Positions 3,185 through 22,196 of a DNA stretch of 38,883 bases are shown one piece after another; position 1 is the first letter of the stretch; each line of letters begins with the position of its first letter. The translations under genes were made by a program, and so were the position numbers. The notes under the pieces are model-generated. The model had not been told where the DNA came from, did not search any database, and worked only from the letters and a program-made list of their open reading frames with translations. This DNA comes from a virus (taxonomy: Duplodnaviria; Heunggongvirae; Uroviricota; Caudoviricetes). The stretch lies in the IMG/VR virus record IMGVR_UViG_2609459833_000016. One strand, written 5' to 3'.

Positions 3185-3202
3185 TGTAAAAAAATCCCCA
3201 CA
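3185..3202. promoter_or_regulatory. Ogr-type late promoter activator box (TGT-N12-ACA) between divergent D and FI
   Basis: TGTAAAAAAATCCCCACA read directly, about 65-75 bp from both the D and FI start codons. Confidence 0.45.
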
Positions 3203-4471: not shown

Positions 4472-4983
4472 TGGCCGTACCCAAAAAACTTCGTGTGTTT
4501 ACCGTCTTTGTGGACGGTGACAACAAGCTGGGCAAGGTGACGTCTTTTACCCCGCCAAAACTGACCCGCAAAACAGAGTCGTATCGCGGGGCGGGTATGC
4601 CTGGCTCTGCGTCGGTGGATCTCGGTCTTGATGATGGTGCACTGGATCTCTCCTTTGCGGTTGGTGGCGTCGATCGTCACATCTTTGCCAAATACGCCGC
4701 CGGTATTGATGCCGTGCGTGTTCGCTTCTCGGGTGAATACTATTCCGAAGAGGGGATTGAGTACGTCGATATTGAAGCCCGTGGTCGCATTGTCGAAATC
4801 GACAAGGGCGAGGCCAAACAGGGTGAAGATACCGAACATACCTATGCGATGAAATGCACCTGGTACAAGCTCAGCGTTGATAACAGCGATGTTATTGAAA
4901 TCGACGTGCTGAACTTCATCTGGCGCATTGATGGTAAGGATGTTCTTCCTGACCGCACCCGCTCCATGCTGGGGCTTGGCTGA
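4471..4983 (+). CDS. FII: Tail tube protein FII
   Basis: 170-aa ORF directly after the sheath gene with stop/start overlap; P2 FII-like. Confidence 0.9.
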   Translation: MAVPKKLRVFTVFVDGDNKLGKVTSFTPPKLTRKTESYRGAGMPGSASVDLGLDDGALDLSFAVGGVDRHIFAKYAAGIDAVRVRFSGEYYSEEGIEYVDIEARGRIVEIDKGEAKQGEDTEHTYAMKCTWYKLSVDNSDVIEIDVLNFIWRIDGKDVLPDRTRSMLGLG

Positions 4984-5034
4984 TAGTTAAATCTGATAAC
5001 AGGGGCGGCGTCCTGTTGCCCCGGGAGAAAAATA

Positions 5035-5415
5035 ATGGATCAGACTGAAGAAAATATCGTGACGAATGACACAGATGCTGTGACGAATGGCGACACGGAA
5101 AACGCAGAGGCGATCGCAAATGACACGGTTAATCTCAGGGTTCCTGTTGTCTGCGGTAATAAGACGGTTTCCAGCGTGAAGATTGGGGCGCTTGCGCGTC
5201 AGGTGGGCTCGCTTCGAGGGATCCGCATGACGGACCTGTTCAACACCGATGTTGATGCTGCCGCCATTTTTCTGGAACGCGTAACTGAACCTCACCTCAG
5301 CCGCGCGGCACTTATGTCAATGTGCCCGGAAGACTTCTTTAAACTGTACGAGGTGGCAGTCGGTTTTTTGCTTCCCTCGTCAGCGAAGAAGGCGCAGGAG
5401 GCGGGCGGCGCGTAA
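5035..5415 (+). CDS. E: Tail assembly chaperone E
   Basis: 126-aa ORF between the tube and tape-measure genes; contains the T-TTT-TTG slippery site near its 3' end. Confidence 0.85.
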   Translation: MDQTEENIVTNDTDAVTNGDTENAEAIANDTVNLRVPVVCGNKTVSSVKIGALARQVGSLRGIRMTDLFNTDVDAAAIFLERVTEPHLSRAALMSMCPEDFFKLYEVAVGFLLPSSAKKAQEAGGA

Positions 5416-5570
5416 CGCTTCTTGCTTTTGATTACGTTGAAGATATTGTCGCTGATATAGCCGTTGTATTTCACTGGTCGCCCTCTGAAATCTTTGTGAT
5501 GACTCCCGGTGAACTGGTTGCCTGGCGAGAACGGGCGGCCGTCAGAACCGGGAATCATAACGATGAGTAA
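5035..5570 (+). CDS. E': Tail assembly chaperone E+E' fusion made by programmed -1 ribosomal frameshift at 5364-5370
   Basis: The -1 frame after the TTTTTTG heptamer stays open to TAA at 5568-5570, overlapping the tape-measure ATG at 5563, as in P2. Confidence 0.7.
5364..5370 (+). other. Programmed -1 frameshift slippery heptamer (T TTT TTG)
   Basis: GGTTTTTTG read directly in the E reading frame. Confidence 0.7.
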
Positions 5571-8394: not shown

Positions 8395-8399
8395 GAGTG

Positions 8400-8870
8400 A
8401 TGGTTATGATGATGATTTACGGCATGTTTGTTTTTCAGTTAAGCACACTGCCACACCAACAAATACAACAGTCCCGTAACTGGAGGCATGTAAAGAACGA
8501 GCGAATCAACCGCTCAGCCAGCTGGCAGTATATCGGCGCGGGTGACGATACCATCACGCTTTCGGATTTGCTCTACCCGGAAATTACGGGCGGTGAAGTC
8601 TCCCTGACCGCACTGACCAGCCAGGCTTACGTCGGGCGACCATGGCCGCTGATTGATGGGGTAGGGCAGATTTACGGGATGTATGTCATTACCGGGCTTA
8701 ACACCACCCGCTCTGAACTTGATCGCTATGGTCGGGCAAGAAAGATTGAGTTTACTGTCACTTTTGAGCGTGTGGATGAAGATCTGCGTGAACGTCTTCA
8801 GTCCTCGTCGCTTGGTGATCTTGCGAATAACGTCAAAGGTGCCCTGAATAATCTGTCCATTCCGGTTTAA
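8400..8870 (+). CDS. U: Tail protein U
   Basis: N-terminus MMM..GMFVFQLSTLP and central PWPLIDG...GMYVI match the P2 gpU pattern; ORF track start 8397 is a GTG. Confidence 0.85.
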   Translation: MVMMMIYGMFVFQLSTLPHQQIQQSRNWRHVKNERINRSASWQYIGAGDDTITLSDLLYPEITGGEVSLTALTSQAYVGRPWPLIDGVGQIYGMYVITGLNTTRSELDRYGRARKIEFTVTFERVDEDLRERLQSSSLGDLANNVKGALNNLSIPV

Positions 8871-8876
8871 ATAATA

Positions 8877-8901
8877 ACGCCCTGGTGTCAGGGCGTTTTT
8901 G
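8877..8901. terminator. Bidirectional rho-independent terminator between convergent U and G
   Basis: ACGCCCTG-GTGT-CAGGGCGT hairpin with T-runs on both strands. Confidence 0.5.
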
Positions 8902-8905
8902 CTGT

Positions 8906-9514
8906 TCATCTTTCGGTGGCGGGTTCTTCCGTTGTGGGCCAGCCCACAACGTAACGCTGAATGGCCTCCGCATCCTGAAGTTCTGCAATCTCTTTTTTCA
9001 TGTTGCGCTGGCGCACATGAATTTCCATTCCCTTCGCGAACATTGCCTGTTGCGCGGCTTCACTCAGCGCAATCAGTTCTTCCGCAGTCATGGGGACGTC
9101 GTTGTTGTCTGCGTCTGTCCAGAAAAACTTCTCCGGGAGATTGCCTTCTTTTGCTGCGATAACTGATGGGCCAAGGCGATCCTGTGTTTCCTTTCCATAA
9201 TCCCAGTTACGGCCATTAAAGCTGAAAATATAACTGGCTGATTCCATTCTGTTCCGCCAGGCGTTGATCCCGGCGGTTTTGAGTTCTCTGGCTTTTTCCG
9301 GGCTGATGGATGGCTGTACATGTTCTGCAATTTCACCGGCCTCTCCTTTCTGACAAGCGGCATAAATATCCCGCCCGTATGCTTCGGTATCGCTGGCTGT
9401 TGCAGTGAAAGGAACCGCCTGCTCAATGTGCTCAAACTTCACCATGCAATTGACAGCAGTGTGATCTTTATCTGCCCATTGCGGATTGCTTATTTTTTCC
9501 ACATTCATGTTCAT
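8906..9514 (-). CDS. G: Tail fiber assembly (chaperone) protein G
   Basis: ORF immediately downstream of the tail fiber gene with an AGGAG RBS; start chosen at the internal MNMNVEK. Confidence 0.75.
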   Translation of the reverse strand: MNMNVEKISNPQWADKDHTAVNCMVKFEHIEQAVPFTATASDTEAYGRDIYAACQKGEAGEIAEHVQPSISPEKARELKTAGINAWRNRMESASYIFSFNGRNWDYGKETQDRLGPSVIAAKEGNLPEKFFWTDADNNDVPMTAEELIALSEAAQQAMFAKGMEIHVRQRNMKKEIAELQDAEAIQRYVVGWPTTEEPATER

Positions 9515-9524
9515 CTCCTGTCTG

Positions 9525-11126
9525 TCAGTATGCGCGCTGGAACAGCCCGATGCCTTCATTGTCATTTGTCGACGTAATTTCATTACACACCATCCATGAG
9601 CCCGGAACTGAGGATAGGTTGCCGTCAATGCCATCGGTGTTAGCTTTCATATAGTTCCCGCTTGCATCTTTGATTATGGCGCATCGCTTAAGGCGTGAAC
9701 CCTGTACAGTTTCTCCTGGCTGATAGGTTTTGTTGAGGTCGGTTACATACGGGGTTAGTGCGGCAATAATGTATGTTCCGATGCTGTAAATTTCCCCGGG
9801 TACCAGCCTTCCGGTTGGCCCTTGTGGTCCGGTTTCACCTGTCGGGCCCTGTCTTCCTGTTTCTCCCTGCAAACCTCGTGGTCCGGTGTTCCCCTGCGGC
9901 CCCGTCGGTCCCGTCGGTCCCGTCGGCCCCGTCGGCCCGGCAGGTCCTTGTCGACCCGCTGGCCCCTCGGCCCCCAGTTCCTTCCAGTCCGTCCATGGAC
10001 CATTTCCGGTGAAATTACCGTTGACAGCCCTGACAAACTTCCTGATGGGGTTCCATGTAGTGTATTCCTGTTGACAGAAACCCCAGGCTCCCATTTTCAC
10101 GGACAGGTATCCCGCCTGTTCAACGGGGTAGTGCATGGCGGTGGTTGCATCTTTATTGGCCGACTGATAGTAATCCCCGTGGTGTTCTGGTTTTCCCAGT
10201 GTATTGAGATCAACGGTCAGCGCGGTATATTTCGCCTTCTGTGCTCCGCTTTGTGTTGACTGTTGAAGTTGTTGTACGGTCTGGTTTGTGGCATTGATTT
10301 GTTGCTCCAGTGTTGAGGCTTTCTCACTTGCTGCCTGTGCACTCTGTTTAGCCTGTTCAGCCAGTTTTTCGGCTTCAGTGGCTTTCTGCATGGTGAGCTG
10401 GACTGCCTTTGGTGTTGCAGCGGCGTTTTCGGCGGCGCTGCCCGTTTCGCTGCTCAGCCGGACGATGCCTTTCTGGCTGGTCGTGGCGTCAGTGACTGAA
10501 GATTTTTCATTAATCATTCCTTTCAGCGTTTTGATGGCCTTAGAGGTTGCGGCTGTTTCTTCGCTGTCACTGTCGGTGGCACTGCTCAGTTGCACAAATC
10601 CCTTTGTGCTTGTGGATGCAGACTGGTGGGTGCCGCTTTTTTCATGTTCTTTGATGGCCTGATCCAGAGCGGCTTTTGTGACCATGACAACTGACTGATC
10701 CAGTTTAATATTCAGCGCAGAAATATTACTCAGGAGAATAACCATCCTGAATACCTGCTCCCGACCTGAACCTTCCTCCAGCTTCGGTTTGTAACCTTCT
10801 GCTACGTTGCCAACAGCAATCAGGGCACCTTCATCATCGAATAACCCAATCTCCCTCACCCAGAAGCCGCCCTGGTCAGCGGGAATAACCAGCTCTGCGG
10901 TGACAAAGCTTTCATTCTCCGCATCCTGTGTGATGCTGGAGATATTCCCTTCCCAGACTTTTTTCACCAGTTGTTTTTGCCCTTCTGATGGCTCCACTTC
11001 CTGGCCGTTGCCGTCGCCCACCTGCATCTTTGCCAGGGTGACTTTTTTTCCACCGGGCTTCAGGGCTTCGGCCAGCTTCCGGCGGCCCTCAGTGGTGATA
11101 ATGGTTTTGTATTTCTGTGTCATGGT
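9525..11126 (-). CDS. H: Tail fiber protein H with collagen-like Gly-X-Y repeat region
   Basis: N-terminus [20 protein letters not shown]...[21 protein letters not shown] matches the conserved gpH N-terminal domain; C-terminal part is divergent. Confidence 0.85.
9808..9976 (-). repeat. Collagen-like (Gly-X-Y)n coding repeat within tail fiber gene H, including a 4x 9-bp tandem repeat (about 9901-9936)
   Basis: Translation [52 protein letters not shown]; the plus strand shows CCCGTCGGT/CCCGTCGGC repeated four times. Confidence 0.7.
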
Positions 11127-11839
11127 TCCTCCGGTGCCGGTTTTACGATGGTCGTTGTGCCGTCGTATGTTGTTCCGGCTATACAGATAGCGGCTTGTGC
11201 GGCGCACGGTGACGGTATCTCCGTATCCGGTTTAACCCGGGTTATGTCACTGTCGTAAATCGCGCCAGCACAATAAATTTCTCCTCCGGTAATGCAGGGG
11301 TTCGGCAGTGTTGCGTCCGGATATACCTGTATGATGTCTCCGCTATGACTCACTGCCCCGGTAAAGACTTCCCCTTTTGCAATGTATGTCAGCCTCAGTG
11401 CTTTCAGGTGACGGCTTACCGGCTTCGCCAGCGCAATCATGCGCTCCATTTCCTGATAGGTCGCCTCTGTCAGGGCTGCATGTGTAACATCGATGTTGAG
11501 ACGAAAACTGCCTGGAGGGTCGCCGTTTTCCCACCACTCTGTAATGCTCAGCAGCGCGCCGAACGGGGCAATAGCTCTTCTCATGGCGCTGATGGTCCCC
11601 TTATGACGGTGAACCATCCACGACTCGCGTATAACGTCCCGGCGAGTCTCTTCCGTCCATGCCTTATCCCATCTGTCCACTGAAAGCGTCCATGCGAGCC
11701 ATGGCAGCAGTACTTCAGGGCATTCGTCCGCATTCCACAGGGTGTTAAGTTTCACCGGCAGCTGGCTGATTTTTTCCCCGGAGCGATCAACGGTTTTCAG
11801 AAAAACACTGGCAGACGGCGGAAGCACCGTTTTACTCAT
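11120..11839 (-). CDS. I: Baseplate protein I with a C-terminal extension carrying a duplicated Cys-containing motif
   Basis: N-terminal 170 aa match the gpI pattern ([15 protein letters not shown]...[13 protein letters not shown]...[18 protein letters not shown]); extra C-terminal 60 aa. Confidence 0.8.
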
Positions 11840-12728
11840 CGGTCCCCCCGGCGCGAATCTCTGTGGCGGAGCATCGCGCCGCCTGTGTTTCGCTGATCAC
11901 CAGATCCTTCGCTGGTTGTGTTAACTCCACCCGCTGAACTCCGGGCACATGCAGGGCCGCCATGATGGCTGAACGGGCAACGTCACGACCAATTCTTCGC
12001 TGCTCTGCCAGCCACGCCTCCAGTTGTGCCCGTGCGGCCTGAAGTATGGGTTCTGATTCCGGCCCCGGGTAAAAATAGAGTGTCGCATCAATCTTGTAGC
12101 TGATGATTTCCGCGCTTTTCACCGTCAGTCTGTCCGCCACGGGGCGAACTGTTTCGTCGTTCAGTACGGCTTTCACTTCGTTAATCAGTGCTTCGTTCGC
12201 CGTTCCGTCTCCGTCGGCTGAAAGGAGCGCAACCACAACTTCCGCCGGTGCCGGGCTGGTTGCTCTGGCATCTGCCACTTTTCCGCTTGCGCTGCGTGCA
12301 AAATACTCATATGAGCCGGAAGGCCCGGCAACACTCATCCCTTCAAAGGCGCTCTGTATGCGCATCCGGAACGCGGCGTCACTTTCCATTACCGCCGGTG
12401 TGGTCTCCGTTGCTTCGGTGATAACCAGGCGCTGCACATTCATGTTTACACCCAGATTGTCAAGATCGCTTCCTGATGAATGACTCAGCATACAGGCCGC
12501 TGCGCCATCATTGATACGCTGCCGCAGTAACAGCTCCCGCCATGCCATAGCCTGAGCGATGATGTTCAGTGGTTCGGACTCCAGTTCAAGGGCTGCCGCC
12601 ACTTCATCGCGCATGGCTTCCGGAAAGACGCTAATCATGAATGTCTTTGTCTGTGCCAGAATCACTTCATAATCCAGCGATTCAATGATCGCCGGTTGCG
12701 GCAGCTGGGATAAATCAATTGTCGGCAT
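11832..12728 (-). CDS. J: Baseplate assembly protein J
   Basis: N-terminus MPTIDLSQLPQP... typical of gpJ; overlaps W and I as in P2. Confidence 0.85.
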   Translation of the reverse strand: MPTIDLSQLPQPAIIESLDYEVILAQTKTFMISVFPEAMRDEVAAALELESEPLNIIAQAMAWRELLLRQRINDGAAACMLSHSSGSDLDNLGVNMNVQRLVITEATETTPAVMESDAAFRMRIQSAFEGMSVAGPSGSYEYFARSASGKVADARATSPAPAEVVVALLSADGDGTANEALINEVKAVLNDETVRPVADRLTVKSAEIISYKIDATLYFYPGPESEPILQAARAQLEAWLAEQRRIGRDVARSAIMAALHVPGVQRVELTQPAKDLVISETQAARCSATEIRAGGTDE

Positions 12729-13083
12729 CCTTCCCTCCCTGTATATCAACGGAAATACTGGCGCTCTGCATGGTGCTTACAATCAGATAGCTCATGGATA
12801 ACACTGCGCTGCCATTGTTTCTCCACGTCAGGTCCACGCTGTTTATGGCAACGCGTGGCTCCCATCGTGTAATGGCGATCACGGCGGCACTCATACAGCG
12901 CAGTCTGGTTATTTCATTTGCCGGACTGTCAAGAAGAGCGGGCAGGTTGCTGCCATACTCGCGCCGCATAACACGCGAACCTTCCGGTGTCAGGATAATA
13001 TCCGTGATTGACTGGTTCAGATGGTCGATGTCTGTCAGCGTTCCGTAGCCTGCGTGATTCATGCCTGTGTAGCCGGTACTCAT
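12715..13083 (-). CDS. W: Baseplate protein W
   Basis: 122-aa ORF with gpW-like sequence (GMN..G..LTD..H..QSI.DIL.TP.GSRVMRR.YGS). Confidence 0.85.
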   Translation of the reverse strand: MSTGYTGMNHAGYGTLTDIDHLNQSITDIILTPEGSRVMRREYGSNLPALLDSPANEITRLRCMSAAVIAITRWEPRVAINSVDLTWRNNGSAVLSMSYLIVSTMQSASISVDIQGGKDADN

Positions 13084-13661
13084 TGTGGGCCTCCGCTCGT
13101 ATCGCTACCGCTCTTCACTCCGCTGTGTACGTGGGTGTGTACGGTGATGCCGTTTGATTCGAGGCTGCCGCCACTGTGTTTCACGTTGCCTTTCATTGTT
13201 CCGCCGCTGGTCAGCTCGAATGTCTTTGTCTTCAGCAACTGCGTACATTCCACCTTTGGCGCGTCCAGCGTGATACTGGTTTCAGCCGTAATGGTTGCGG
13301 TTTTTATACCTCTGGCCGTCAGGCTGCTTTCCTGTGCGTTATAGCGAAATTCCGCACCGTCCGGCGCGGTAATGACCATTTCGTTTTCCAGCGATCCCGG
13401 TGGCGGGTTGTCGTTGCTGTACAGACTTCCTGCGCTGACTGCGGTTTCCGGATTGCCGCCCGGGCATAGGAGAAACACCTGTTCGTCCGGTGATGGGGGG
13501 ATCCAGATTTTAAATTTTCCGGCCCGCCCGCTGTTCCATCGGATCCAGTTTGTGGTCAGGCCGCCGGTCTGCACACGCACCTCCCAGGTGTCGGTGTTGA
13601 TTTCCGTAACCACACCAATCCGCACAATGTTTTCCAGCAGACGCATAAGCTCGATGTTCAT
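13080..13661 (-). CDS. V: Baseplate spike/hub protein V
   Basis: 193-aa ORF with gpV-like OB-fold N-terminus and C-terminal spike region; position between S and W. Confidence 0.85.
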   Translation of the reverse strand: MNIELMRLLENIVRIGVVTEINTDTWEVRVQTGGLTTNWIRWNSGRAGKFKIWIPPSPDEQVFLLCPGGNPETAVSAGSLYSNDNPPPGSLENEMVITAPDGAEFRYNAQESSLTARGIKTATITAETSITLDAPKVECTQLLKTKTFELTSGGTMKGNVKHSGGSLESNGITVHTHVHSGVKSGSDTSGGPQ

Positions 13662-14293
13662 TTCGCTGCTTTCCCCAGTCCGGCAATCACGGTTTCTGTG
13701 ATTTGCTGTTTGTCTTTTTCGTTCAGGCCCAGCAGCTCGCGCACGGGGTATTTCGTGGCGTTCCCGGGTGATACCAGGCCTACCTCACCGAACTGGTGCA
13801 CTCTGGCAATACGCGCGGCCCGGCCCTGAAAGCCGACACTTACGCCGTTTGTGTCGGGGATGATTCTCAGAAAGCGTGCTGTTCTCAGCTTTTCGAACAT
13901 AGGTGAGCGACGTGATGCTCTTGCTGCGACGCGCTGTGTGTTAATTTCCAGGTAGTCCCCGATGTCTGCCTTGTAAAACGTCCTGATCCCCCCGGCGTCT
14001 GTATCGTAGCCGGTGATTTTCTGCCCGAAACATCCCTGTGACGTGCTCCAGTTTTTCAGGTTTCTTACCTGGCCGTCCTTCCAGATAAACTTCACGCCTT
14101 TTTGTATGCGCATGATGCGGCGTTTTCGTTTCTCCCATGGCTGGCCTTCCGGGGATACCTGGCTTCTGATGCGTTTTGTCTGTAGCTGTCGGACGACCTT
14201 ACCCACGCTCATTGCCGTGCGCTGAATTCCGGCTGCCGACAGGCCGGAAAGAATATCCTGAAAGATGACATCCAGTTCGCGGTCCGCTCTCAT
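13658..14293 (-). CDS. S: Tail completion protein S
   Basis: Position between R and V; ORF track gives 13658..14320, and an internal start at 14293 overlaps the R stop. Confidence 0.75.
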   Translation of the reverse strand: MRADRELDVIFQDILSGLSAAGIQRTAMSVGKVVRQLQTKRIRSQVSPEGQPWEKRKRRIMRIQKGVKFIWKDGQVRNLKNWSTSQGCFGQKITGYDTDAGGIRTFYKADIGDYLEINTQRVAARASRRSPMFEKLRTARFLRIIPDTNGVSVGFQGRAARIARVHQFGEVGLVSPGNATKYPVRELLGLNEKDKQQITETVIAGLGKAAK

Positions 14294-14760
14294 GTGCTGG
14301 TCTCCGTTCCGGTTCGCCACGTCATGTCTTCAAACACTACGCGCCATGCTTCCAGTGCCCGGCTTATCGGGGGCTCACCGATGTGCTCTGCCGTCACCGT
14401 GCCGTCGTCATTACGGCGCACAATCACGCGCTCCCATACCGGGATTTCCAGCAGGATATCGGCACTGTCGTCATCGTTGATGGCCGTCGAAAATTTGATG
14501 CTTTTGTTCTTCTCCGGATTGAGAAGAAGAACCGGCTGATTCCTGTACAGCCACGCCATGACCGGCAGCATGATGTTGTCGATACTTTCTGTGAAGTCCA
14601 TGACGAACAACACCAGGTTGTAGCGGTACAGGAATGAGGGGGATTCACCGGTGGTTTCAATGCCACCCGATTCAATGAATACCGTGAATTTTTCCGGGCT
14701 GGCCTTACACCACCGGCAGTTGCTGGTCAGAGCTTCGCGTAATGAATTCAGTTTCAGCAT
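14290..14760 (-). CDS. R: Tail completion protein R
   Basis: 156 aa; N-terminus MLKLNSLREALT and central VMAWLYRNQP match the gpR pattern. Confidence 0.85.
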   Translation of the reverse strand: MLKLNSLREALTSNCRWCKASPEKFTVFIESGGIETTGESPSFLYRYNLVLFVMDFTESIDNIMLPVMAWLYRNQPVLLLNPEKNKSIKFSTAINDDDSADILLEIPVWERVIVRRNDDGTVTAEHIGEPPISRALEAWRVVFEDMTWRTGTETST

Positions 14761-14857
14761 AAAACACCGTAGAACGTGTTGCGTGTGGCAATTAAAAATC
14801 TCAAAATTAAATGGCTTTTAATTCGGGTTCTTTCTTGCTCACCTTTCCCCTCTTGCA

Positions 14858-14890
14858 CCCTCCGTATACCGGAGGGTTTTTTGTTTCTTT
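14858..14890 (+). terminator. Plus-strand intrinsic terminator (CCCTCCG-TATAC-CGGAGGG + TTTTTTGTTTCTTTT)
   Basis: Perfect 7-bp stem followed by a T-run on the plus strand only; lies between R and the inserted esterase module. Confidence 0.5.
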
Positions 14891-14932
14891 TGCTGTGGAC
14901 AGTGGTGCCGTTCTGATGCGCTGTGCCTGTTG

Positions 14933-15097
14933 TTATGGCAATACCCCGTTGACCGCTCCGCCAGCTGATTTCCTGGCGGCTGCTTCATCTATCTTTTTGT
15001 TCCAGAAATTGCGGACGGCTTTATATCCCCCTGAGATCAGATACAGAAGGGATACGGCGGTACTGAAATACAACATTATCTGATGAATAAATCCCAT
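14933..15097 (-). CDS. Small (55 aa) predicted single-pass membrane protein, not in the ORF track (below its size cutoff)
   Basis: Hand-translated: GGAG RBS 6 nt before ATG; MGFIHQIMLYFSTAVSLLYLISGGYKAVRNFWNKKIDEAAARKSAGGAVNGVLP; one hydrophobic helix. Confidence 0.35.
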   Translation of the reverse strand: MGFIHQIMLYFSTAVSLLYLISGGYKAVRNFWNKKIDEAAARKSAGGAVNGVLP

Positions 15098-15161
15098 GGC
15101 TTGCTCCTTTTATTTTCCCGGTTGTCAGCGAGCTTCCCCGCCGGATGGCTGGGAAGCATTG

Positions 15162-17132
15162 TTATGCCGGTGGCTGATTTACGACAACGCTCAGGCTGTC
15201 AATCAGTACGGTATAGGTCGGCCGATACGTGATATCGGTCACGCGTAACGTGTCGTTGGTAACATCGGCTTTTGATGTGGAAAGCATGAACGGTTTTCCG
15301 TCCACGCCATCCAGAACCGGTGTTACCTGGGTGCTGTTGTTTCCCGCAAAACGAAACGCTATGGTGTGCCAGTTGTTATTGAACTGACCAAAGGTTCCCA
15401 GTTGTTCGTTTGGCGTTTTGTGATACATCAGATTCAGGTTTGCGCTGTCTGTCTGAAGAAAGAATGAGAGCAATAAATTATTTGGATCTGCCCCCAGTAA
15501 TTTCACATCCTGCGGTAATGCTGATGTTTTCCAGTACATCGCCATTGCGTACTGGTCTTTTTTCAGCTCACCCTCGATTTTGAATCGGCAACTTACAGTC
15601 CCGCCATTTTTCAGAAGGTCAGCACCATTACCGGCCTTATGCTCCAGATACCAGGTATTGCCTTCCTGTTTGGTCAGTTTCAGGGCTTTTTTCCCTGTTG
15701 CTTCCTCATCACCGATCAGCATGTCTTTCAGTTGTTTTGGTGTGTTGGCCCCGTTTTTGCCTTCGCTCAGCGTCCAGCCCTGGCTTTCCAGTTCAGGAGA
15801 TGATGCCAGCAGACTCATGAGCGTGACCGGCCCCGGTCTGACTGCCGGTTGTTCTGCTTCCGGTGAAGATGGCTTACTGATGCCGCCCGGTGCATCCTGT
15901 GATGGTTTTGCCACGCGTTCCGGCTCTGTACCCGCAATAAATGGCAGCGTGCGGCCGACGTTAAGCAGGATTGCTGACGCCATGCGATCGGCAATAATGC
16001 CCCGGCGGGCCCATGAGCTGAAGTGCGTTCCACGCAGATGGCTTACCCAGTTTCCGCTACTGCGGGATGCGGCACCGTAATAACCCGCTTCCGCAATATC
16101 CGGATCTTCTGTCGGCTCGTTTGTTGGGGTGTTTTTCCCGTACTCATCCGTAACAAAAGGCACAAAAACAATATTCTTCTCAGTGCTGTTTTTGTATCCG
16201 CCATACACGGTTGCGTACTGTGCTTCGTAGGTTTTTTTCCAGTGGTAGGTGGTATCTCCACAAATCCACGGCACGCTTTCAGGGTTGCCCTGGTTGCACT
16301 GCTTCGCAACATCGGCCAGGTCAGCCCGGAACTGCTTCACCATGGCTGTGAAAAGATCTTTATGCTGTGCGGCGTTTTGTTCTTTCTCAAGATCTGCCTC
16401 GCCCTGTGTCCAGCAGACGGCCAGCAGGACGTTTTTCGGATTTTTCGCCAGCGCTGCTTTTGTGCGGCTGATTAAATCCTTGTACAGCGGCGTGTTCGTT
16501 CCCCAGCGGCAGGATTTTTCAGTTGCGCCGCCGATCTCGCTGAATTGCCCCGCATCACCGGTTGTAAAGCCGGAACCGCCACGGCTGCATGGGACCAGAA
16601 GGATCCCCGCATTTGCCGGGATAAATGGCAGCAGGCGCTTCGCAATGTGCAATCCCTGACTCACACAGCCATACTGACCTTTGTTCAGGTCGGCTTTCGG
16701 GTGGTTGTACTGGCTCATATCCTGCACGTCATGCAGGCAGTGATCCGCCAGAATGATGTCGTTATAGGCACAAGCTTTTCCGCTCGGGGTTACGGTGCTG
16801 CGGCGTGCCAGCTGGCGAATGCGCGAATCGGGTTTATCGTAACTTTCCGGGAGAGGTAACCCCTCACCGTATGCCATAGAGTTGGACTGACCAGCGCTCA
16901 CCACAACGTAATACCACTCCGGTTCGCTGTCGGATGTCGGGGTGATAATGGTGCCTCCCTGGTCATCACTGCCTGAAACCATAGCCTGCATGAGATACCA
17001 GGGGACTCCCGGCTCTGATGCAATACCGGCATTACCGAGAAGTTCCCAGCCTTCCTGTAACCGCTTGTTAACTTTTTCAGCGAATTCTGCGCGGTTGGTG
17101 GCAGTAATCAGTTCAAAGTGTTTTTTGCTCAT
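15162..17132 (-). CDS. NanS-p-like prophage esterase: N-terminal DUF1737-like domain + SGNH/SASA-type carbohydrate O-acetylesterase domain + C-terminal lectin-like domain (656 aa)
   Basis: MSKKHFELITATNRAEFAEKVNKRLQEGWELLG N-terminus; GQSNSMAYGEG nucleophile motif; about 250-aa beta-rich C-terminal domain; located after the lysis genes. Confidence 0.7.
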   Translation of the reverse strand: MSKKHFELITATNRAEFAEKVNKRLQEGWELLGNAGIASEPGVPWYLMQAMVSGSDDQGGTIITPTSDSEPEWYYVVVSAGQSNSMAYGEGLPLPESYDKPDSRIRQLARRSTVTPSGKACAYNDIILADHCLHDVQDMSQYNHPKADLNKGQYGCVSQGLHIAKRLLPFIPANAGILLVPCSRGGSGFTTGDAGQFSEIGGATEKSCRWGTNTPLYKDLISRTKAALAKNPKNVLLAVCWTQGEADLEKEQNAAQHKDLFTAMVKQFRADLADVAKQCNQGNPESVPWICGDTTYHWKKTYEAQYATVYGGYKNSTEKNIVFVPFVTDEYGKNTPTNEPTEDPDIAEAGYYGAASRSSGNWVSHLRGTHFSSWARRGIIADRMASAILLNVGRTLPFIAGTEPERVAKPSQDAPGGISKPSSPEAEQPAVRPGPVTLMSLLASSPELESQGWTLSEGKNGANTPKQLKDMLIGDEEATGKKALKLTKQEGNTWYLEHKAGNGADLLKNGGTVSCRFKIEGELKKDQYAMAMYWKTSALPQDVKLLGADPNNLLLSFFLQTDSANLNLMYHKTPNEQLGTFGQFNNNWHTIAFRFAGNNSTQVTPVLDGVDGKPFMLSTSKADVTNDTLRVTDITYRPTYTVLIDSLSVVVNQPPA

Positions 17133-17135
17133 CGT

Positions 17136-17447
17136 TTACTCCTGATGGGGCGCATCTTGCGCCCGTTCTGCTCTTTGTTTATCCAGCCAGGCGATCGCAG
17201 CCTTGTCTGCGTTGCATGTGTCGAGTGCTTCCAGTAGCCGATCGCTCCATTCAGTCACCCTGTACCATGTCACGGGTATTTCCAGTGCCGGAACCGGGGT
17301 CTGCCTTGTCAGAACTGTCGGCACCGGCTCGTAAACGAGTCTGGTTTTCAACGTGTGCGGCGTGTTGCTGCAACCGCTCAGTAACAGCAGCGGGAGGATA
17401 AGCGCTGGCACACGTGTCGCCCTGCACGGCTTTTTGCATTTCTTCAC
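17136..17447 (-). CDS. lysC: LysC/Rz1-like outer-membrane lipoprotein spanin (o-spanin), embedded out of frame in lysB
   Basis: Signal peptide with lipobox (LLLLSGCS), Pro-rich mature part, overlaps the 3' half of lysB in another frame. Confidence 0.6.
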   Translation of the reverse strand: MKKCKKPCRATRVPALILPLLLLSGCSNTPHTLKTRLVYEPVPTVLTRQTPVPALEIPVTWYRVTEWSDRLLEALDTCNADKAAIAWLDKQRAERAQDAPHQE

Positions 17448-17685
17448 GTCGTTGCTCTCCTTCTGTGATCCGTTGCTGGTCCAGAATGCGGATCACGTTT
17501 ATCACCCTGGAAAAGTCTGTGTATGCATGGCGAACTTCCTGCATGGCGGCGCGGTTGTCCTCTATGATGTCCATCATCTGTTCCCGTCCGAGACTTTCCT
17601 TCCCTTTGCGGTATGCTTCCCAGCCTGTCAGGCCACAAAGCAACAGGGTGGCAAGAAACCAGAGCAACACGGCAGGTGTTTTCAT
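17251..17685 (-). CDS. lysB: LysB/Rz-like inner-membrane spanin (i-spanin)
   Basis: N-terminal TM helix (AVLLWFLATLLLCGLTGW) then charged coiled-coil; start overlaps the endolysin stop. Confidence 0.7.
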   Translation of the reverse strand: MKTPAVLLWFLATLLLCGLTGWEAYRKGKESLGREQMMDIIEDNRAAMQEVRHAYTDFSRVINVIRILDQQRITEGEQRREEMQKAVQGDTCASAYPPAAVTERLQQHAAHVENQTRLRAGADSSDKADPGSGTGNTRDMVQGD

Positions 17686-18221
17686 TGCTTCACTCCGTTC
17701 ATACACCAGTTCCTGAAGTCATTGCGCCGGTTAAACAGCCCCTGTGAATAGCGTCCGCCGCTGTTCACAAAATCCGTCAGCCTGCCGCACATTGCGCTCC
17801 AGTTCTTTCCCTGAGCGAACTTCCAGATGGTTGTTCTGTGCATCCTCCCGTCACGCCCCTTAAACCACATCAGGCCTTTGCACCCCAGATTAAAGGCAGC
17901 ATCCGTCATTGCCTCAAAGTGGCGCTGTGGCATGTCGCGGCCATTGAAATTCTGATTGATGCAGTTCTCCGCCCGTCGTAAATCGTTCACCCATCGACCG
18001 GCAACTTCCTGTTTGGTATGGTGGCGGTCGGGGACGTTTCCCGTTGAGCCACAACCCACTGTTTTCACGCCAGCGATATCCCTGTACGGGAATGCCCGAC
18101 ACTCTTCCCAGGTGGCAATTTTTTCCTGTGCCTCCTGTGAGGTTCTCAGCTCCCCGGGGGCCAGCGAAAAACCCAGCGCCACGATGGCGGCAACGGCATA
18201 GCGTTTAATCTGTCCTGGCAT
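17682..18221 (-). CDS. SAR-type endolysin (lysozyme, T4-lysozyme-like GH24 with N-terminal signal-anchor-release helix)
   Basis: N-terminal hydrophobic SAR segment (YAVAAIVALGFSLAPG) followed by E-x8-D-x5-T catalytic spacing (WEECRAFPYRDIAGVKT), resembling phage 21 R. Confidence 0.8.
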   Translation of the reverse strand: MPGQIKRYAVAAIVALGFSLAPGELRTSQEAQEKIATWEECRAFPYRDIAGVKTVGCGSTGNVPDRHHTKQEVAGRWVNDLRRAENCINQNFNGRDMPQRHFEAMTDAAFNLGCKGLMWFKGRDGRMHRTTIWKFAQGKNWSAMCGRLTDFVNSGGRYSQGLFNRRNDFRNWCMNGVKQ

Positions 18222-18507
18222 GTGATTCCCCGTCTGCATTCAGGGCTTCCAGAGCGCGCTTCTCGCTGCCTTTTAGTGGTCGGTGCTGCATCTGGTCGGC
18301 AATGCGTGCAATAAGCTCATTGCGCCGCTCCTGTGCCTGCTCCATACGTGTTCTGTGCATCCATCCGCGCAGCAGTGAAAGCGCCCCCAGAATCAGTCCT
18401 GCCAGCGCCATCTTCTCGCTCAGCGTCATAACCCCTATACCGGTGACCATGACGGATGTGAAAAACGTAATGTGGTCGTAAATTCTCTGAAACATAATCA
18501 ATCCCAC
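18205..18507 (-). CDS. Holin
   Basis: 100-aa protein with two hydrophobic helices and a charged C-terminus, immediately upstream of the endolysin. Confidence 0.7.
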   Translation of the reverse strand: MGLIMFQRIYDHITFFTSVMVTGIGVMTLSEKMALAGLILGALSLLRGWMHRTRMEQAQERRNELIARIADQMQHRPLKGSEKRALEALNADGESHARTD

Positions 18508-18698
18508 AACTGAACGGTTTCGCGCTGTTTTTCCTGTGTGATTTCCGGTAATTCAACTTCCTGCCCGGCAGTGAGGAATACCGTGTTACTCAGCCCCGGA
18601 TTGGCAGCCAGAACGCGCTCTGTCACGCCCTTTGTCATGCCGTAATGACGCTGGCAGAGTAAGTCAACGGTGTCGCCGTCATGCGCGGTTACCTTCAT
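18498..18698 (-). CDS. X: Tail protein X (LysM-like)
   Basis: About 67-aa ORF MKVTAHDGDTVDLLCQRHYG... between L and the holin, as in P2. Confidence 0.7.
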   Translation of the reverse strand: MKVTAHDGDTVDLLCQRHYGMTKGVTERVLAANPGLSNTVFLTAGQEVELPEITQEKQRETVQLWD

Positions 18699-19192
18699 TA
18701 AATCAGCTCCGCATAAATCCGTCTGACGCCGCGAATATCGGATATTGCCCAGCGTGCATCGCGCCACATATCTTCAATCTGCATGTCCAGCGCATCGGCC
18801 CGGCGATCACCTTTGTCGGTGGTGTCCACATCCCGCGAACGCTCAAGAACGCCCGCGCGGGTCAGTGCATACACCGCGCGTCGATACCGGTGCACGTTCA
18901 CGCTCTCACCGTTGATGTGTGCTGCCGGAACGTCCGCCAGTGTCGACCGTCCCGCCGCCTCCTGTTTCTGTTTCCAGGCGTCAAGCTCTGCCGTTACATG
19001 TGCCACAGCTTCGGTGGCCGAATGCAGCAGACGTGAGGTGGTGGTGCGCCCGGGAATGCGCATGGCAAGGCGCAGCTCTTTCAGCACGATATCCGGCCAG
19101 AACGCGTCTGTACTGATGCGCGCTTCTCCGTCGTCGGTGTCTGTCGTGTCATCCGTGGCGTCGTTCACACGGGGTCTGGCTACCATGCTCAT
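18698..19192 (-). CDS. L: Head completion/stabilization protein L
   Basis: 164-aa ORF directly downstream of the terminase small subunit, matching the P2 order M-L-X. Confidence 0.8.
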   Translation of the reverse strand: MSMVARPRVNDATDDTTDTDDGEARISTDAFWPDIVLKELRLAMRIPGRTTTSRLLHSATEAVAHVTAELDAWKQKQEAAGRSTLADVPAAHINGESVNVHRYRRAVYALTRAGVLERSRDVDTTDKGDRRADALDMQIEDMWRDARWAISDIRGVRRIYAELI

Positions 19193-19300
19193 GATGTCTT
19201 CTCCTGTAGATCAGGCGGTGGGCGACCGGTGAAAATGACCGGGAGTCAGCGATCAGATCACCGGTCGCGCCGCCTGCCGACGAGGTCGGGTCCGGTGTTA

Positions 19301-20110
19301 TCAGGTCGCCTTGCGCGCCGGTTTTGCGGCGGTTTTTTTCGTGGCTTTTCTGGCCGTCGCTTTTGTAGTCGGCTTTTTGCGCCCTGATGTTGCTTTCGAT
19401 TTACTTTTCTCTTCTGCCGGTTTTTCCGGTTCCGGCTGAACCTTTGATACCTTTCTGGCCAGCGTGGCGATTTCACGCTTCACGCCCGCTGCCGGGTTGA
19501 TGCGCATGGCTTCACGCAGCAGACCAAGTGACACAGTCATGTCTTCCGTACTGCCTGATGCGCGCCGTGAAAATGCCCGCGCCTTATGTAGTTTTGCACG
19601 AACCTGATCCGGCATGTCCTGGTCGTGAACCAGTGCATCCAGCTCGTCCAGCATACGGATATAGCCGGATAAGTCGGTTTCGCTGTTGGTGGCGGCTTCT
19701 GTCAGCACAACTTCGGCAATTTCTTCGGTGAGCACGGTCGCCGAATCGCGCCCGAAGTTGTCCGGCAGTGCCAGCCGGTGACGAATGACGTACTCACCGA
19801 TACGCAGTGCCAGCGGATAATCCCGGCAGTCAATTGCCCACACCATCATGGTGGTAATGACTTCGTCCTGGCGTCCGCTGTCGCCTGCCAGCGTGCCGTC
19901 TATCCAGCCTTCAAAATTCGGTATCAGGTGCTTCTTCAGCTCCGCTTTCGCGATGTTCGACTGCACGCCCTTCAGCTGCAACTGGGCGAGGCGTAACTGG
20001 TGAAGAACCTGTTCATGTGCCGTTCGTGTTCGCTGCTCTTCGCGACTGAATGGATCAGCCCGATGATGCGCCATCACGCGCTGAAGGTATCGTTGTGCCG
20101 GTGTCAGCAT
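19301..20110 (-). CDS. M: Terminase endonuclease (small) subunit M with Lys/Ala-rich C-terminal tail
   Basis: 269-aa ORF between N and L; basic C-terminal low-complexity tail. Confidence 0.85.
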   Translation of the reverse strand: MLTPAQRYLQRVMAHHRADPFSREEQRTRTAHEQVLHQLRLAQLQLKGVQSNIAKAELKKHLIPNFEGWIDGTLAGDSGRQDEVITTMMVWAIDCRDYPLALRIGEYVIRHRLALPDNFGRDSATVLTEEIAEVVLTEAATNSETDLSGYIRMLDELDALVHDQDMPDQVRAKLHKARAFSRRASGSTEDMTVSLGLLREAMRINPAAGVKREIATLARKVSKVQPEPEKPAEEKSKSKATSGRKKPTTKATARKATKKTAAKPARKAT

Positions 20111-20159
20111 GTATTCGACTCCTGATTAACCGGCGGGCACATGTGCCCGCCATAATGCG

Positions 20160-21254
20160 TTACGCCTGTGCTTCTGCCTCTTTCTTGTCTTCCGGATCTT
20201 CACCGGCGAAAGAAATGCCCTCAATCAGTGCGCACTTGCCGTAGTCTTCCACCACGTAGCAGTCGTTCATGGACTGGTAGGTGGCGATACGGTTGTACTC
20301 CGGCTCTTCACGGATGAAGCGACGCAGTGACCCTTTCTGGAAGTAGACCGAAAGGTTGCTGAACGACGTGATCAGCATGGCATCGTCCGGGAAGTACGGC
20401 GCAAAGAAGGTTGGCAGCGCGCCAATGGTGCGGGAGGCTGTAATCAGCTGTCCGGCGACCAGCTCCGTGTTCGGGTTGGTGGTGCTGATGGCGTTAATCA
20501 TAGGCAGACGCAGCGTGTTGAACAGGTTGCGGCCCATGACAACAACCAGATCCGGGGCGTCCTTGTGCCACTCATCCAGTATGGAAGAGCGAATGTCGTT
20601 AACCATCGCGTCAGCGTTGCCGTAGTCGCCTTTTGCAACCAGTTTGTTTTCATGATCGCGACGGGTCAGCGTCATTGCCTTCACGACACGCGTCGTGGCG
20701 TGTTCACGGATGTGTTTCAGCCACCCGGTGTTAACGTCCTGAAGTTTCGGGTTGGCAGAACGATCGGAGATGATGGCGTGCGACTCACCGTTAAAGCCAA
20801 TCATGATACGGTCCAGTGCAATCTGTCGGGTGATTTGTGCACTCAGCAGTTGCTGGAAGTTTTTCTGGCTGCTCCACGCGTCAATCTGTGCGTAGCTGAT
20901 GAAGGTGTCGTAGTTCACCTGTTCGCAGCGATAACGACGTGATGCCAGATCAGAGACGTCAGCGGGATTGCGTCGCTTCACGCCGTCACTGGTTGAGTTG
21001 GTGCTGGCGATGGGGCCGCTGGTATTCACCAGGACTTTTTCACCCTCCTGATCGTCAACGCCGATGCTGTTGATTCTTTTCAGCAGCTCGTCGCTCTCTT
21101 TGATGGCGTTTTCCATCTTCTGATGAACAGCCGGATCAACGCTGAAGGTTTTCCCCAGTCGTTCTACGGTGGTTTCGGCCAGTTCAGCCTGGCGTGCAAG
21201 ATAGGCCTCAAGATTGCTGCGGCCTTCGCGAGAAAGCGTTAAGCGGTTTCCCAT
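20160..21254 (-). CDS. N: Major capsid protein N
   Basis: 364-aa ORF of gpN size and position between O and M. Confidence 0.9.
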   Translation of the reverse strand: MGNRLTLSREGRSNLEAYLARQAELAETTVERLGKTFSVDPAVHQKMENAIKESDELLKRINSIGVDDQEGEKVLVNTSGPIASTNSTSDGVKRRNPADVSDLASRRYRCEQVNYDTFISYAQIDAWSSQKNFQQLLSAQITRQIALDRIMIGFNGESHAIISDRSANPKLQDVNTGWLKHIREHATTRVVKAMTLTRRDHENKLVAKGDYGNADAMVNDIRSSILDEWHKDAPDLVVVMGRNLFNTLRLPMINAISTTNPNTELVAGQLITASRTIGALPTFFAPYFPDDAMLITSFSNLSVYFQKGSLRRFIREEPEYNRIATYQSMNDCYVVEDYGKCALIEGISFAGEDPEDKKEAEAQA

Positions 21255-21269
21255 GATTTTGTTCCTCTG

Positions 21270-22106
21270 TTAAAAATCAGCCAGGGCGTGGCTGTTGCCA
21301 CCGGTTGAAGCAAAGCGCTGTTCCTTGTCTGCATCTTCGGTTTTCAGCTGCGCCTTCAGTTCAGTCAGTTCGCGGGTCAGGGTTTCCAGTGATGCCTTAT
21401 CACTGCGCTGTTGCTCTTCCATCGCATGGAAGCGATCCAGAAGGCCGGCTTGTTCCGTGGCAATGCTCTCGACGGCTTCGCGCACGTGAGCGAACTGCTC
21501 GCTGTCCGTGTCACGGGTTTTGCTGATGAGCGCCATGACGCGCGAAAACCATTTCTGGCTTTCTTCGGTGCTGTCCTGTACGGAGGCCGCGAGTTCCGCT
21601 TCCATACATTCGGTGAACATGACTGGCTCACCGCTGCGGCTGTTGAACTGCATGATGCTGGCGCGCTGCTGGGCGGCAAACTTCAGTCGTTCAGTGCCGA
21701 GACTTGCCGGGGTATCGGTCATTGCCAGGCCAATTATGTAAGGGCCGCCAACGGCATCAATGTTGGGTTCAAGCTCAATGCTTGAGTAGATTTTCTTGCC
21801 ATCATTCAGCATCTGCGTCATGCGGTCGGTGGGCTCAATTTCGGCATACAGTGCGGTGCGGCCGGCCAGTTTGCCTTCCCTGATTTCTTCGGTGGACAGT
21901 GAAATCACATCGCCCACGGCACTGAATTCACTGGATGGCATACGTGAAAGCATGTGCTCCACGTTCACCCGTGACCCCCACACTTCCGGGTCGTAATTCT
22001 CAGCGGCCTGACGCAACATCAGCCCCGAAATCTCACGCCCGTCGATGGTGGTGCCCGAGACGGCGACGCGGAATTTTTTCCGTACTGGCGCGTTTTTACT
22101 TGCCAT
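21270..22106 (-). CDS. O: Capsid scaffolding protein O
   Basis: 278-aa ORF divergent from the terminase gene P; C-terminal coiled-coil. Confidence 0.85.
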   Translation of the reverse strand: MASKNAPVRKKFRVAVSGTTIDGREISGLMLRQAAENYDPEVWGSRVNVEHMLSRMPSSEFSAVGDVISLSTEEIREGKLAGRTALYAEIEPTDRMTQMLNDGKKIYSSIELEPNIDAVGGPYIIGLAMTDTPASLGTERLKFAAQQRASIMQFNSRSGEPVMFTECMEAELAASVQDSTEESQKWFSRVMALISKTRDTDSEQFAHVREAVESIATEQAGLLDRFHAMEEQQRSDKASLETLTRELTELKAQLKTEDADKEQRFASTGGNSHALADF

Positions 22107-22178: not shown

Positions 22179-22196
22179 TGTAAGAGCGTGGCGACA
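22179..22196. promoter_or_regulatory. Ogr-type late promoter activator box (TGT-N12-ACA) in the divergent O/P intergenic region
   Basis: TGTAAGAGCGTGGCGACA read directly, about 70-85 bp from both start codons. Confidence 0.5.

Follow-up and report, generated by a model that had tools for sequence, protein, structure and literature searches.

The DNA analysed here (the window: 38,883 nucleotides, IMG/VR record IMGVR_UViG_2609459833_000016) is a piece of Escherichia coli chromosome that contains pgsA, the tRNA genes Gly-Cys-Leu and then a complete P2-like prophage. On the minus strand of this prophage, between the spanin gene lysC and the tail gene R, lie a gene for a 656-aa esterase of the NanS-p family and, downstream from it, a gene for a small membrane protein of the DUF1378 family. 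We conclude that these two genes quite probably form a cargo module of the P2-like late operon, whose products would be made late and released at lysis. The enzymatic and late-release parts of this explanation are very likely, judging from domain matches, catalytic motifs and gene context.

An earlier reading of the same letters (hereafter the first-pass annotation) had described a 656-aa open reading frame (ORF) with a DUF1737-like N-terminus, a GQSNS motif and a lectin-like C-terminus, and had likened this architecture to that of NanS-p esterases. The ORF is present at 15162..17132, with the three regions as described. Its product, WP_021577194.1, is labelled 'DUF6645 domain-containing protein' or 'sialate O-acetylesterase' at NCBI. 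All three Pfam domains of NanS-p proteins were found above their gathering thresholds: DUF1737 (PF08410; residues 3-52, 34.7 bits for a cut-off of 24, E=1.6e-8), SASA (residues 143-273, 50.3 bits, cut-off 24.8) and DUF6645 (residues 507-620, 151.3 bits, cut-off 27). Phrog_143 covers the protein end to end (E=1.6e-296), and it is 55% identical over its full length to vb_24B_21 of phage phi24B. No NCBIfam model matched the 656-aa esterase. Among solved structures, E. coli NanS (PDB 3PT5) aligns to residues 70-389 (E=8.6e-114) and the C-terminal domain of NanS-p (PDB 6YP6) to residues 434-652 (E=1.3e-63); with E-values of this order, the identity of the esterase is not attributable to chance. SASA proteins are defined by a GQSN block I, which holds the Ser nucleophile and a Gln of the oxyanion hole, by (H)QGE in block III and by a catalytic His (PMC9487903). 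In the window protein GQSNS occupies residues 81-85, block I being G81-Q82-S83-N84; GQSN with Ser83, Q243-G244-E245 and His370 were unchanged in 22 of 22 aligned homologues. The SASA match above threshold and the aligned Ser83 and His370 thus bear out the NanS-p assignment, and the predicted protein is a genuine member of that family by its architecture, its catalytic motifs and its homology to both solved domains.

The features of the region and of its two flanks are the following.

17136..17447, minus strand: LysC (Rz1-like o-spanin), left flank; Pfam LysC
15162..17132, minus strand: NanS-p-family sialate O-acetylesterase gene, 656 aa (WP_021577194.1); Pfam, phrog_143 and PDB matches
16977..17132, minus strand: DUF1737 N-domain, residues 1-52, P2-type variant; Pfam match and alignments
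15963..16925, minus strand: SASA/SGNH catalytic domain, residues 70-390; 3PT5 match, motif positions and 22-homologue alignment
16884-16886 and 16023-16025, minus strand: Ser83 and the catalytic His370, respectively, block III being Q243-G244-E245
15834..15962, minus strand: interdomain linker, Pro/Ser-rich, residues 391-433, with PSSP; from the sequence, conservation low
15162..15833, minus strand: lectin-like jelly-roll C-terminal domain, DUF6645, residues 434-656 plus stop; 6YP6 and Pfam matches
15098..15161, minus strand: esterase-DUF1378 spacer with an AAGGAG ribosome-binding site; from the sequence
14933..15097, minus strand: gene for the DUF1378 small membrane protein, 54 aa (55 codons with the stop); Pfam E=6e-21, phrog_494
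14761..14932, minus strand: DUF1378-R spacer, right edge of the exchangeable segment; DNA identity to relatives is back at ~14800
14857..14887, plus strand: GC-rich hairpin and T-run, intrinsic-terminator-like; stem 14857-14877, then TTTTTTGTTTC
14290..14760, minus strand: gpR tail completion protein, right flank; Pfam P2_Phage_GpR E=1.5e-39

The C-terminal domain is the most divergent part of the esterase, the window copy being 38-59% identical to all other alleles. The G+C content of this domain and of the DUF1378 part is 0.47-0.50, versus 0.54-0.58 in the flanks. PSSP is found in the linker between the catalytic and C-terminal domains, and the N-terminal linker has no SSP; an SSP-type motif has been discussed as a processing site in gp84 of phi24B (bioRxiv 10.64898/2026.04.10.717836). 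PADLOC returned no defence-system match for either the esterase or the DUF1378 protein.

The position of the module points to late expression. The minus-strand late genes follow the order M, L, X, holin, lysozyme K, LysB, LysC, esterase, DUF1378, R, S, V, W, J. Only 3 nt separate the lysC stop from the esterase ATG (junction TAA-ACG-ATG), and the ribosome-binding site of the esterase, AGGAG 6 nt 5′ of the ATG, overlaps the end of lysC. No promoter-like site was found 5′ of the esterase; the only sigma-70-like site is internal to the gene, and its rate is below chance. The module had been placed in the late operon by the first-pass annotation, and the 3-nt gap and the lack of a predicted promoter of its own agree with this. 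Late-promoter dyads of the form TGT-N12-ACA were found at 3185 (before FI) and at 22179 (in the O-P intergenic region), as expected; their total count in the window is not above chance, and only their positions are informative. None was found from O to S. Since no dyad interrupts this interval, and since the P2 record places R and S in the O operon, we infer that the esterase is a late, Ogr-dependent gene. A late promoter in the DUF1378-R spacer was considered and rejected: this spacer contains neither a TGT-N12-ACA dyad nor a sigma-70-like site, and it is only 15 nt long in the related locus L003. The classical features of a moron, an own promoter and a same-strand terminator, were not found for the esterase module, and Rfam gave no RNA family in 14200-17800. 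The esterase has no signal peptide or transmembrane segment (maximal 19-residue Kyte-Doolittle value 1.26; 0.07 in the N-terminal region). As it lacks an export signal, it is expected to leave the cell only through phage lysis.

Further down the operon, S and V overlap by 4 nt (13658-13661), and no TGT-N12-ACA dyad precedes V. In P2 a terminator, orf30 and the pV promoter are found at this point. Because of the overlap and the missing dyad, the O operon of the window lineage may continue unbroken into the baseplate genes.

The first-pass annotation had taken the 2.4 kb for an insertion relative to P2. In P2 and 186 lysC overlaps R, and synteny comparison confirmed that the module is missing from this position in both. 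It is likewise missing in P88 (Xuanwuvirus) and phiT5282H (Novemvirus), the nearest deposited relatives, which have no esterase between their spanin genes and R. The best deposited gpR match (P88/phiT5282H) is 58% identical at the protein level, and a megablast of the 3.6-kb region against deposited phages gave no match. By synteny, no characterised P2-like phage among those examined has these 2.4 kb. No transposon or insertion sequence signature was seen, as there is no transposase ORF and flanking repeats do not exceed chance-level matches of 14-27 nt.

What did not hold is the notion of a singular insertion, as the module occurs throughout a lineage and its alleles are exchanged. Among 5,426 complete E. 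coli genomes, the esterase-bearing P2-like lineage is present in ∼25. A copy at least 99% identical is found in 14, all of which have an intact 656-aa ORF. Two of the 5,426 carry a prophage of a second type, L002, with backbone proteins 85-98% identical and an esterase only 57% identical. In the L003 sublineage, backbone proteins are ∼60-76% identical and the order is lysC, esterase (681 aa), DUF1378, R; nine further genomes of the L003 type have a lysC-R distance of ∼2.5 kb. Two more alleles occupy the same site in P2-like prophages of other assemblies (P0004 in L095, P0006 in L094). The order lysC-esterase-(DUF1378)-R is common to L002, L003, L094 and L095, and at least five diverged alleles (∼57-63% identical overall) share the lysC-R site in this one lineage. 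No member without the esterase was found among those detectable. The module is thus a fixed feature of this prophage lineage, and not a one-off insertion. A scan of genome contigs gave five loci (in Escherichia albertii and Escherichia sp., plus NanS of the single-domain type in Proteus and in a metagenome-assembled Bacillota genome), which are little informative on distribution.

It is highly improbable that the module is a decaying remnant, inert for phage and host alike. Signs of such decay would be the frameshift of DUF1378 in L002, its absence in L095, and the Leu that replaces the block III Gln in the L003-type esterase. They are opposed by the ORF kept intact in 14 near-identical copies, by a 90%-identity protein cluster of 277 member sequences around the window esterase, by the invariant catalytic residues and by purifying selection on DUF1378 (below). 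Moreover, every detectable member of the lineage has a full-length esterase despite repeated allele replacement.

The Leu of the L003 esterase (L003 5758-7803) lies in a WMLGEFD sequence at residues ∼253-259, in place of the Gln of the SASA QGE motif. Catalysis by this type of allele may be impaired or altered.

Comparison of the alleles suggests how they were replaced. Within the P2-like lineage, the identity of the N-domain tracks that of the major capsid protein and the backbone, whereas that of the catalytic and C-terminal domains does not. Pairs formed by the window, L002 and L095 have major capsid proteins 98-99% identical and N-domains 75-92% identical; these values are 92% and 64% for L003 versus L094, and 83-84% and 52-60% for all remaining P2-like pairs. 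The catalytic domains of L002 and L095 are 63% identical, and their C-terminal domains 30%. At the DNA level, L095 and L002 are 93-100% identical until ∼150 nt into the esterase, then 30-73%, and identity is back to 96% just before R. From this collapse after DUF1737 and recovery before R, the exchange unit consists of the linker, the catalytic and lectin domains, the hairpin and, if present, DUF1378. DUF1737 goes with the backbone; what is swapped is the catalytic and lectin part.

The two genes are also found together outside P2-like prophages. A tblastn search of deposited phages returned 347 records, at ∼55% identity; phage type was checked in sampled rows, all of which were lambdoid/Shiga toxin (Stx) phages, bar one copy in a Mu-like element. 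Among the best 80 IMG/VR loci, 53 were lambdoid and 16 had a Mu-type esterase, mostly right after the gin invertase; 3 were identical to the window. In the lambdoid loci the genes follow each other as Q, (stx), esterase, DUF1378, S, R, Rz. DUF1378 lies 64 nt 3′ of the esterase in the window, and 64-165 nt 3′ of it in 70 of 75 IMG/VR loci (those of the best 80 with enough downstream sequence). The esterase-DUF1378 pair travels jointly in lambdoid and Mu-like prophages too. N-domains group by phage type: those of the P2 type are 53-71% identical among themselves and 27-47% to lambdoid ones, and the Mu-type N-domain, of ∼105 aa, is unrelated to DUF1737, has no Pfam match and could represent another kind of virion anchor. 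No such grouping is seen for the catalytic domain, since that of L002 is 85% identical to a lambdoid allele and that of the Mu-type L057 is 88% identical to lambdoid L036; nor is it seen for the C-terminal domain. Searches with the 59-70-aa N-domain alone gave only fragments and a few weak matches, and did not establish other cargo on a P2-type DUF1737.

Mu-like esterase loci include L004 5686-7728, as well as P0062, P0099, L047-L049, L057 and others. Hybrid loci were also observed: in L047 (96-6042) and L053, a Mu-type N-domain (with gin upstream in L047) is followed by a lambdoid DUF1378 and S-R-Rz. The existence of such hybrids suggests that different resident prophages recombine within the conserved catalytic domain.

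The second gene of the module had been described as a 55-aa, single-transmembrane ORF on the same strand, with a strong ribosome-binding site. It is indeed a same-strand membrane ORF, and AAGGAG stands 7 nt 5′ of its ATG; its length needs a small correction, to 54 aa (55 codons with the stop). The product matches Pfam DUF1378 (74.8 bits, cut-off 25) and has a conserved N-terminal hydrophobic segment (hydropathy peak 1.43, residues 7-25) followed by a basic helix. Among homologues, the ratio of nonsynonymous to synonymous substitution rates (dN/dS) is 0.06-0.43 where dS is unsaturated; DUF1378 thus appears to be a real gene under purifying selection. The gene is a frameshifted pseudogene in L002 (L002 6562-6861) and absent in L095, and is therefore dispensable for retention of the esterase. 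We regard it as a dispensable accessory, predicted to reside in the inner membrane.

Two observations on small membrane proteins are added here. The window DUF1378 reads YFSTAVS where most homologues have YFCTxVC, with Ser at both conserved transmembrane Cys positions. In phiT5282H, LysC and R are separated by a different hydrophobic ORF, of 30 aa (L007 4396-4488). Small membrane-protein genes may settle repeatedly at the LysC-R junction.

A plus-strand terminator had also been noted before R. A hairpin with a T-run does exist there, and it does not part the module from R, being antisense to the operon. Read on the coding strand, the site consists of an A-run, the hairpin and GCAAGAGG, with no U-tract; it is predicted to have terminator form on the plus strand only, antisense to every gene here, so that read-through into R and S should not be blocked. 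Lambdoid (phi24B, BP-4795), Mu-like and P2-like versions have a run of six to seven A residues (A6-7) and a GC hairpin directly 3′ of the esterase stop (L093 25252-25295; L004 7726-7765; L094 9948-9990; L095 9950-9980). The window hairpin lies instead 3′ of DUF1378, and its folding energy is ∼-16 kcal/mol, versus ∼-21 to -23 kcal/mol for those lambdoid and Mu-like copies that were folded. We consider that the A-run and hairpin are, by this recurrence, a conserved accessory of the esterase module.

We propose the following course of events. The esterase would be transcribed only in lytic growth, on a message running O...lysC-esterase-DUF1378-R-S that starts at the late promoter upstream of O and depends on Ogr. 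The enzyme would build up in the cytoplasm and reach the gut lumen upon cell lysis by the phage holin, endolysin and spanins. In the lumen it would take 7/8/9-O-acetyl groups off mucin sialic acids, as lambdoid NanS-p do biochemically, with the lectin-like C-terminal domain directing it to glycans. The freed sialic acid might feed surviving sister lysogens, or virions might cope better with mucus, or both. Lambdoid NanS-p are known to de-O-acetylate Neu5,9Ac2 and mucin glycans, to be induced strongly with the late genes and to give lysogens a growth benefit (PMC8065619, PMC8319020). The release at lysis or virion association suggested by the first-pass annotation would match this family knowledge, including the capsid binding reported for phi24B.

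Alternatively, the enzyme could modify receptors, removing O-acetyl groups from bacterial glycans (O-antigen, K1 polysialic acid, capsules) so as to aid adsorption or escape from debris. This idea has already been raised for NanS-p (PMC8065619), and the phi24B NanS-p is virion-associated (bioRxiv 10.64898/2026.04.10.717836). The C-terminal binding domain also diverges fastest (30-59% identity between alleles), as expected if it followed variable surface glycans. Yet the catalytic domain is very near that of E. coli NanS, which is sialic-acid-specific, every substrate measured for the family is a sialic acid or a mucin glycan (PMC8319020, PMC8065619), and the gene lies outside the tail-fibre and baseplate module. 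We consider a receptor-modifying role unlikely, and retain de-O-acetylation of mucin sialic acids as the predicted activity.

A more speculative extension of this scheme is that DUF1737 docks the esterase on the phage capsid, by analogy with phi24B. In a 2026 preprint, the NanS-p of that phage, gp84, is a capsid decoration protein whose DUF1737 binds the capsid hexons: a hexamer of this domain plugs the hexons at the facet centres of a T=9 shell, the 'tooth' Tyr42 of its anchor loop is inserted between helices of the major capsid protein, and cleavage later removes the enzyme part (bioRxiv 10.64898/2026.04.10.717836). In the window protein, the DUF1737 loop ASEPGVPWYLMQ is nearly invariant among P2-type alleles, whose conserved form is ASEPG(V/A)P(W/F)YLMQ, and differs from all lambdoid types. 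Such a loop would fit with a conserved partner specific to P2-like phages. That the P2-type DUF1737 is a backbone-encoded capsid anchor, showing an exchangeable glycan-targeted esterase on a T=7 gpN shell, is a tentative idea that we hold to be rather doubtful at present. Background parallels exist: T4 Hoc is a functional one among capsid decoration proteins, and P4 Psu, which sits on P2-derived gpN shells, is a precedent for the decoration of gpN hexamers.

A number of points weigh against the proposed scheme, either in its enzymatic or in its capsid part. The window allele stands apart: by BLASTP its overall identity to any other 90%-identity protein cluster does not exceed 60%, and it has substitutions beside the catalytic blocks (GQSNS, PCSRGGSG, WTQGEAD), which are common to some other natural alleles. 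The AlphaFold2 model (22-sequence alignment) was poor, with a mean predicted local distance difference test (pLDDT) of 61, a predicted template modelling score of 0.45 and a pLDDT of 41-67 in the N-domain; this monomer model was not used for fold searches or active-site geometry, the matches to solved structures being stronger evidence. For the capsid part, the P2-type shell is T=7 and lacks the flat facet-centre hexon of the phi24B shell. Tyr42 of phi24B aligns with Val43 in the window protein, where the aromatics W45 and Y46 follow 2-3 residues later, the loop being longer. One lambdoid DUF1737 type (ITPYTLMQA) co-occurs with at least three head-gene types (terminase/portal sets); as the association between N-domain type and head-gene type is only partial in lambdoid phages, it neither confirms nor excludes capsid specificity. 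The linkage of N-domain and backbone could also simply reflect where homology permits crossovers. Finally, of the four aromatics put forward as the glycan-binding site of vb_24B_21 (Y510, Y515, Y540 and F611; PMC10462455), the window esterase keeps two, as Y528 and Y533, has Phe for Y540, and has a 1-residue deletion at the position of F611. With that position deleted, its ligand specificity may differ.

Several of these points would be accounted for if the esterase were a soluble enzyme only, free and possibly hexameric at lysis, with DUF1737 merely an oligomerisation or solubility domain. Its link to the backbone would then be a by-product of the available crossover sites: on the left the catalytic domain, at its conserved start, and on the right the R flank. 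Recombinant lambdoid NanS-p works in solution and supports growth on Neu5,9Ac2 (PMC8065619), and the hybrid loci joining a Mu-type N-domain to lambdoid DUF1378-S-R-Rz point to crossover in the catalytic domain. The promiscuous ITPYTLMQA type and the lack of positional conservation of Tyr42 go in the same direction. Two facts are less easily explained in this way. The loop corresponding to the gp84 anchor is the best-kept part of the N-domain in P2-type alleles and differs from every lambdoid type, and Mu-like phages swap DUF1737 for an unrelated domain of ∼105 aa, which is unexpected for a generic oligomerisation domain. We give this soluble-enzyme alternative a little under an even chance. 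Should the capsid anchor be real, no decoration protein of a P2-like phage would precede this one, and an anchor-plus-swappable-cargo system would be common to lambdoid, P2-like and Mu-like gut E. coli phages, the Mu-like anchor being different. Diversification of the lectin domain would then keep pace with glycans of host mucin or of bacteria.

With regard to known systems, the lambdoid NanS-p (933W L0105/z1466, phi24B vb_24B_21, which is gp84, and BP-4795 YjhS) share with the window protein the DUF1737-SASA-DUF6645 layout and the catalytic motifs. As in the window, their genes are late genes adjoining the lysis cassette and are followed by a DUF1378 gene and an A-run with hairpin. They lie between Q/stx and the holin gene S, whereas the window gene is 3′ of the spanins and 5′ of the tail gene R; its host is a P2-like (Peduoviridae) myovirus-type prophage, not a lambdoid one, with no Q-antitermination context, and its DUF1737 loop is 4 residues longer than the lambdoid loop. 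Chromosomal NanS of E. coli (YjhS, 3PT5) has in common with the window protein the GQSN and QGE motifs and the His of the Ser-His pair; it is a single-domain protein, to which the window protein adds DUF1737 and the lectin-like domain, without an export signal. Mu-like esterases (for instance that of an element inside Stx1_JNE122137) show 56-72% identity in the catalytic and C-terminal domains and are followed by DUF1378 and the hairpin, but their module stands at the phage genome's end, behind the gin invertase, and not at a lysC-R site as in the window. DUF1737, the domain that forms the capsid-bound hexamer of gp84, is also present in the window protein. New with respect to described members are the P2-like phage type, the position after the spanins and before R, and the DUF1737 variant. 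The searchable literature (two key papers in subscription journals lying outside it) contained no report of NanS-p in P2-like or Mu-like prophages, nor of cassette exchange at the domain level.

NanS-p have so far been studied almost wholly in Shiga-toxin and other lambdoid prophages of pathogenic E. coli. The esterase-DUF1378 module appears here as a standing part of a P2-like lineage and of Mu-like prophages, and many of the host strains come from healthy human carriers or wastewater. For these reasons, de-O-acetylation of sialic acid seems to be a strategy that temperate gut coliphages follow in general, and not a trait of those E. coli that produce Shiga toxin. The backbone-linked DUF1737, together with the phi24B preprint, provides a concrete capsid prediction for P2-like virions. 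One of the carrier strains, NCTC9112, has an NCTC culture-collection designation, and the system should be tractable.

Two further observations concern the prophage outside the module. The FI-U block (sheath, tube, E, T, U; ∼3287-8880, plus strand) is on the strand opposite to H-G and D-ogr (8900-22100, minus strand). This block is inverted relative to P2 in this lineage, L094 and L095 being alike in this respect. At the prophage end, a gene for a toxin of the Hok/Gef family lies between tRNA-Leu and ogr, at ∼1373-1513 (L001 7174-7314).

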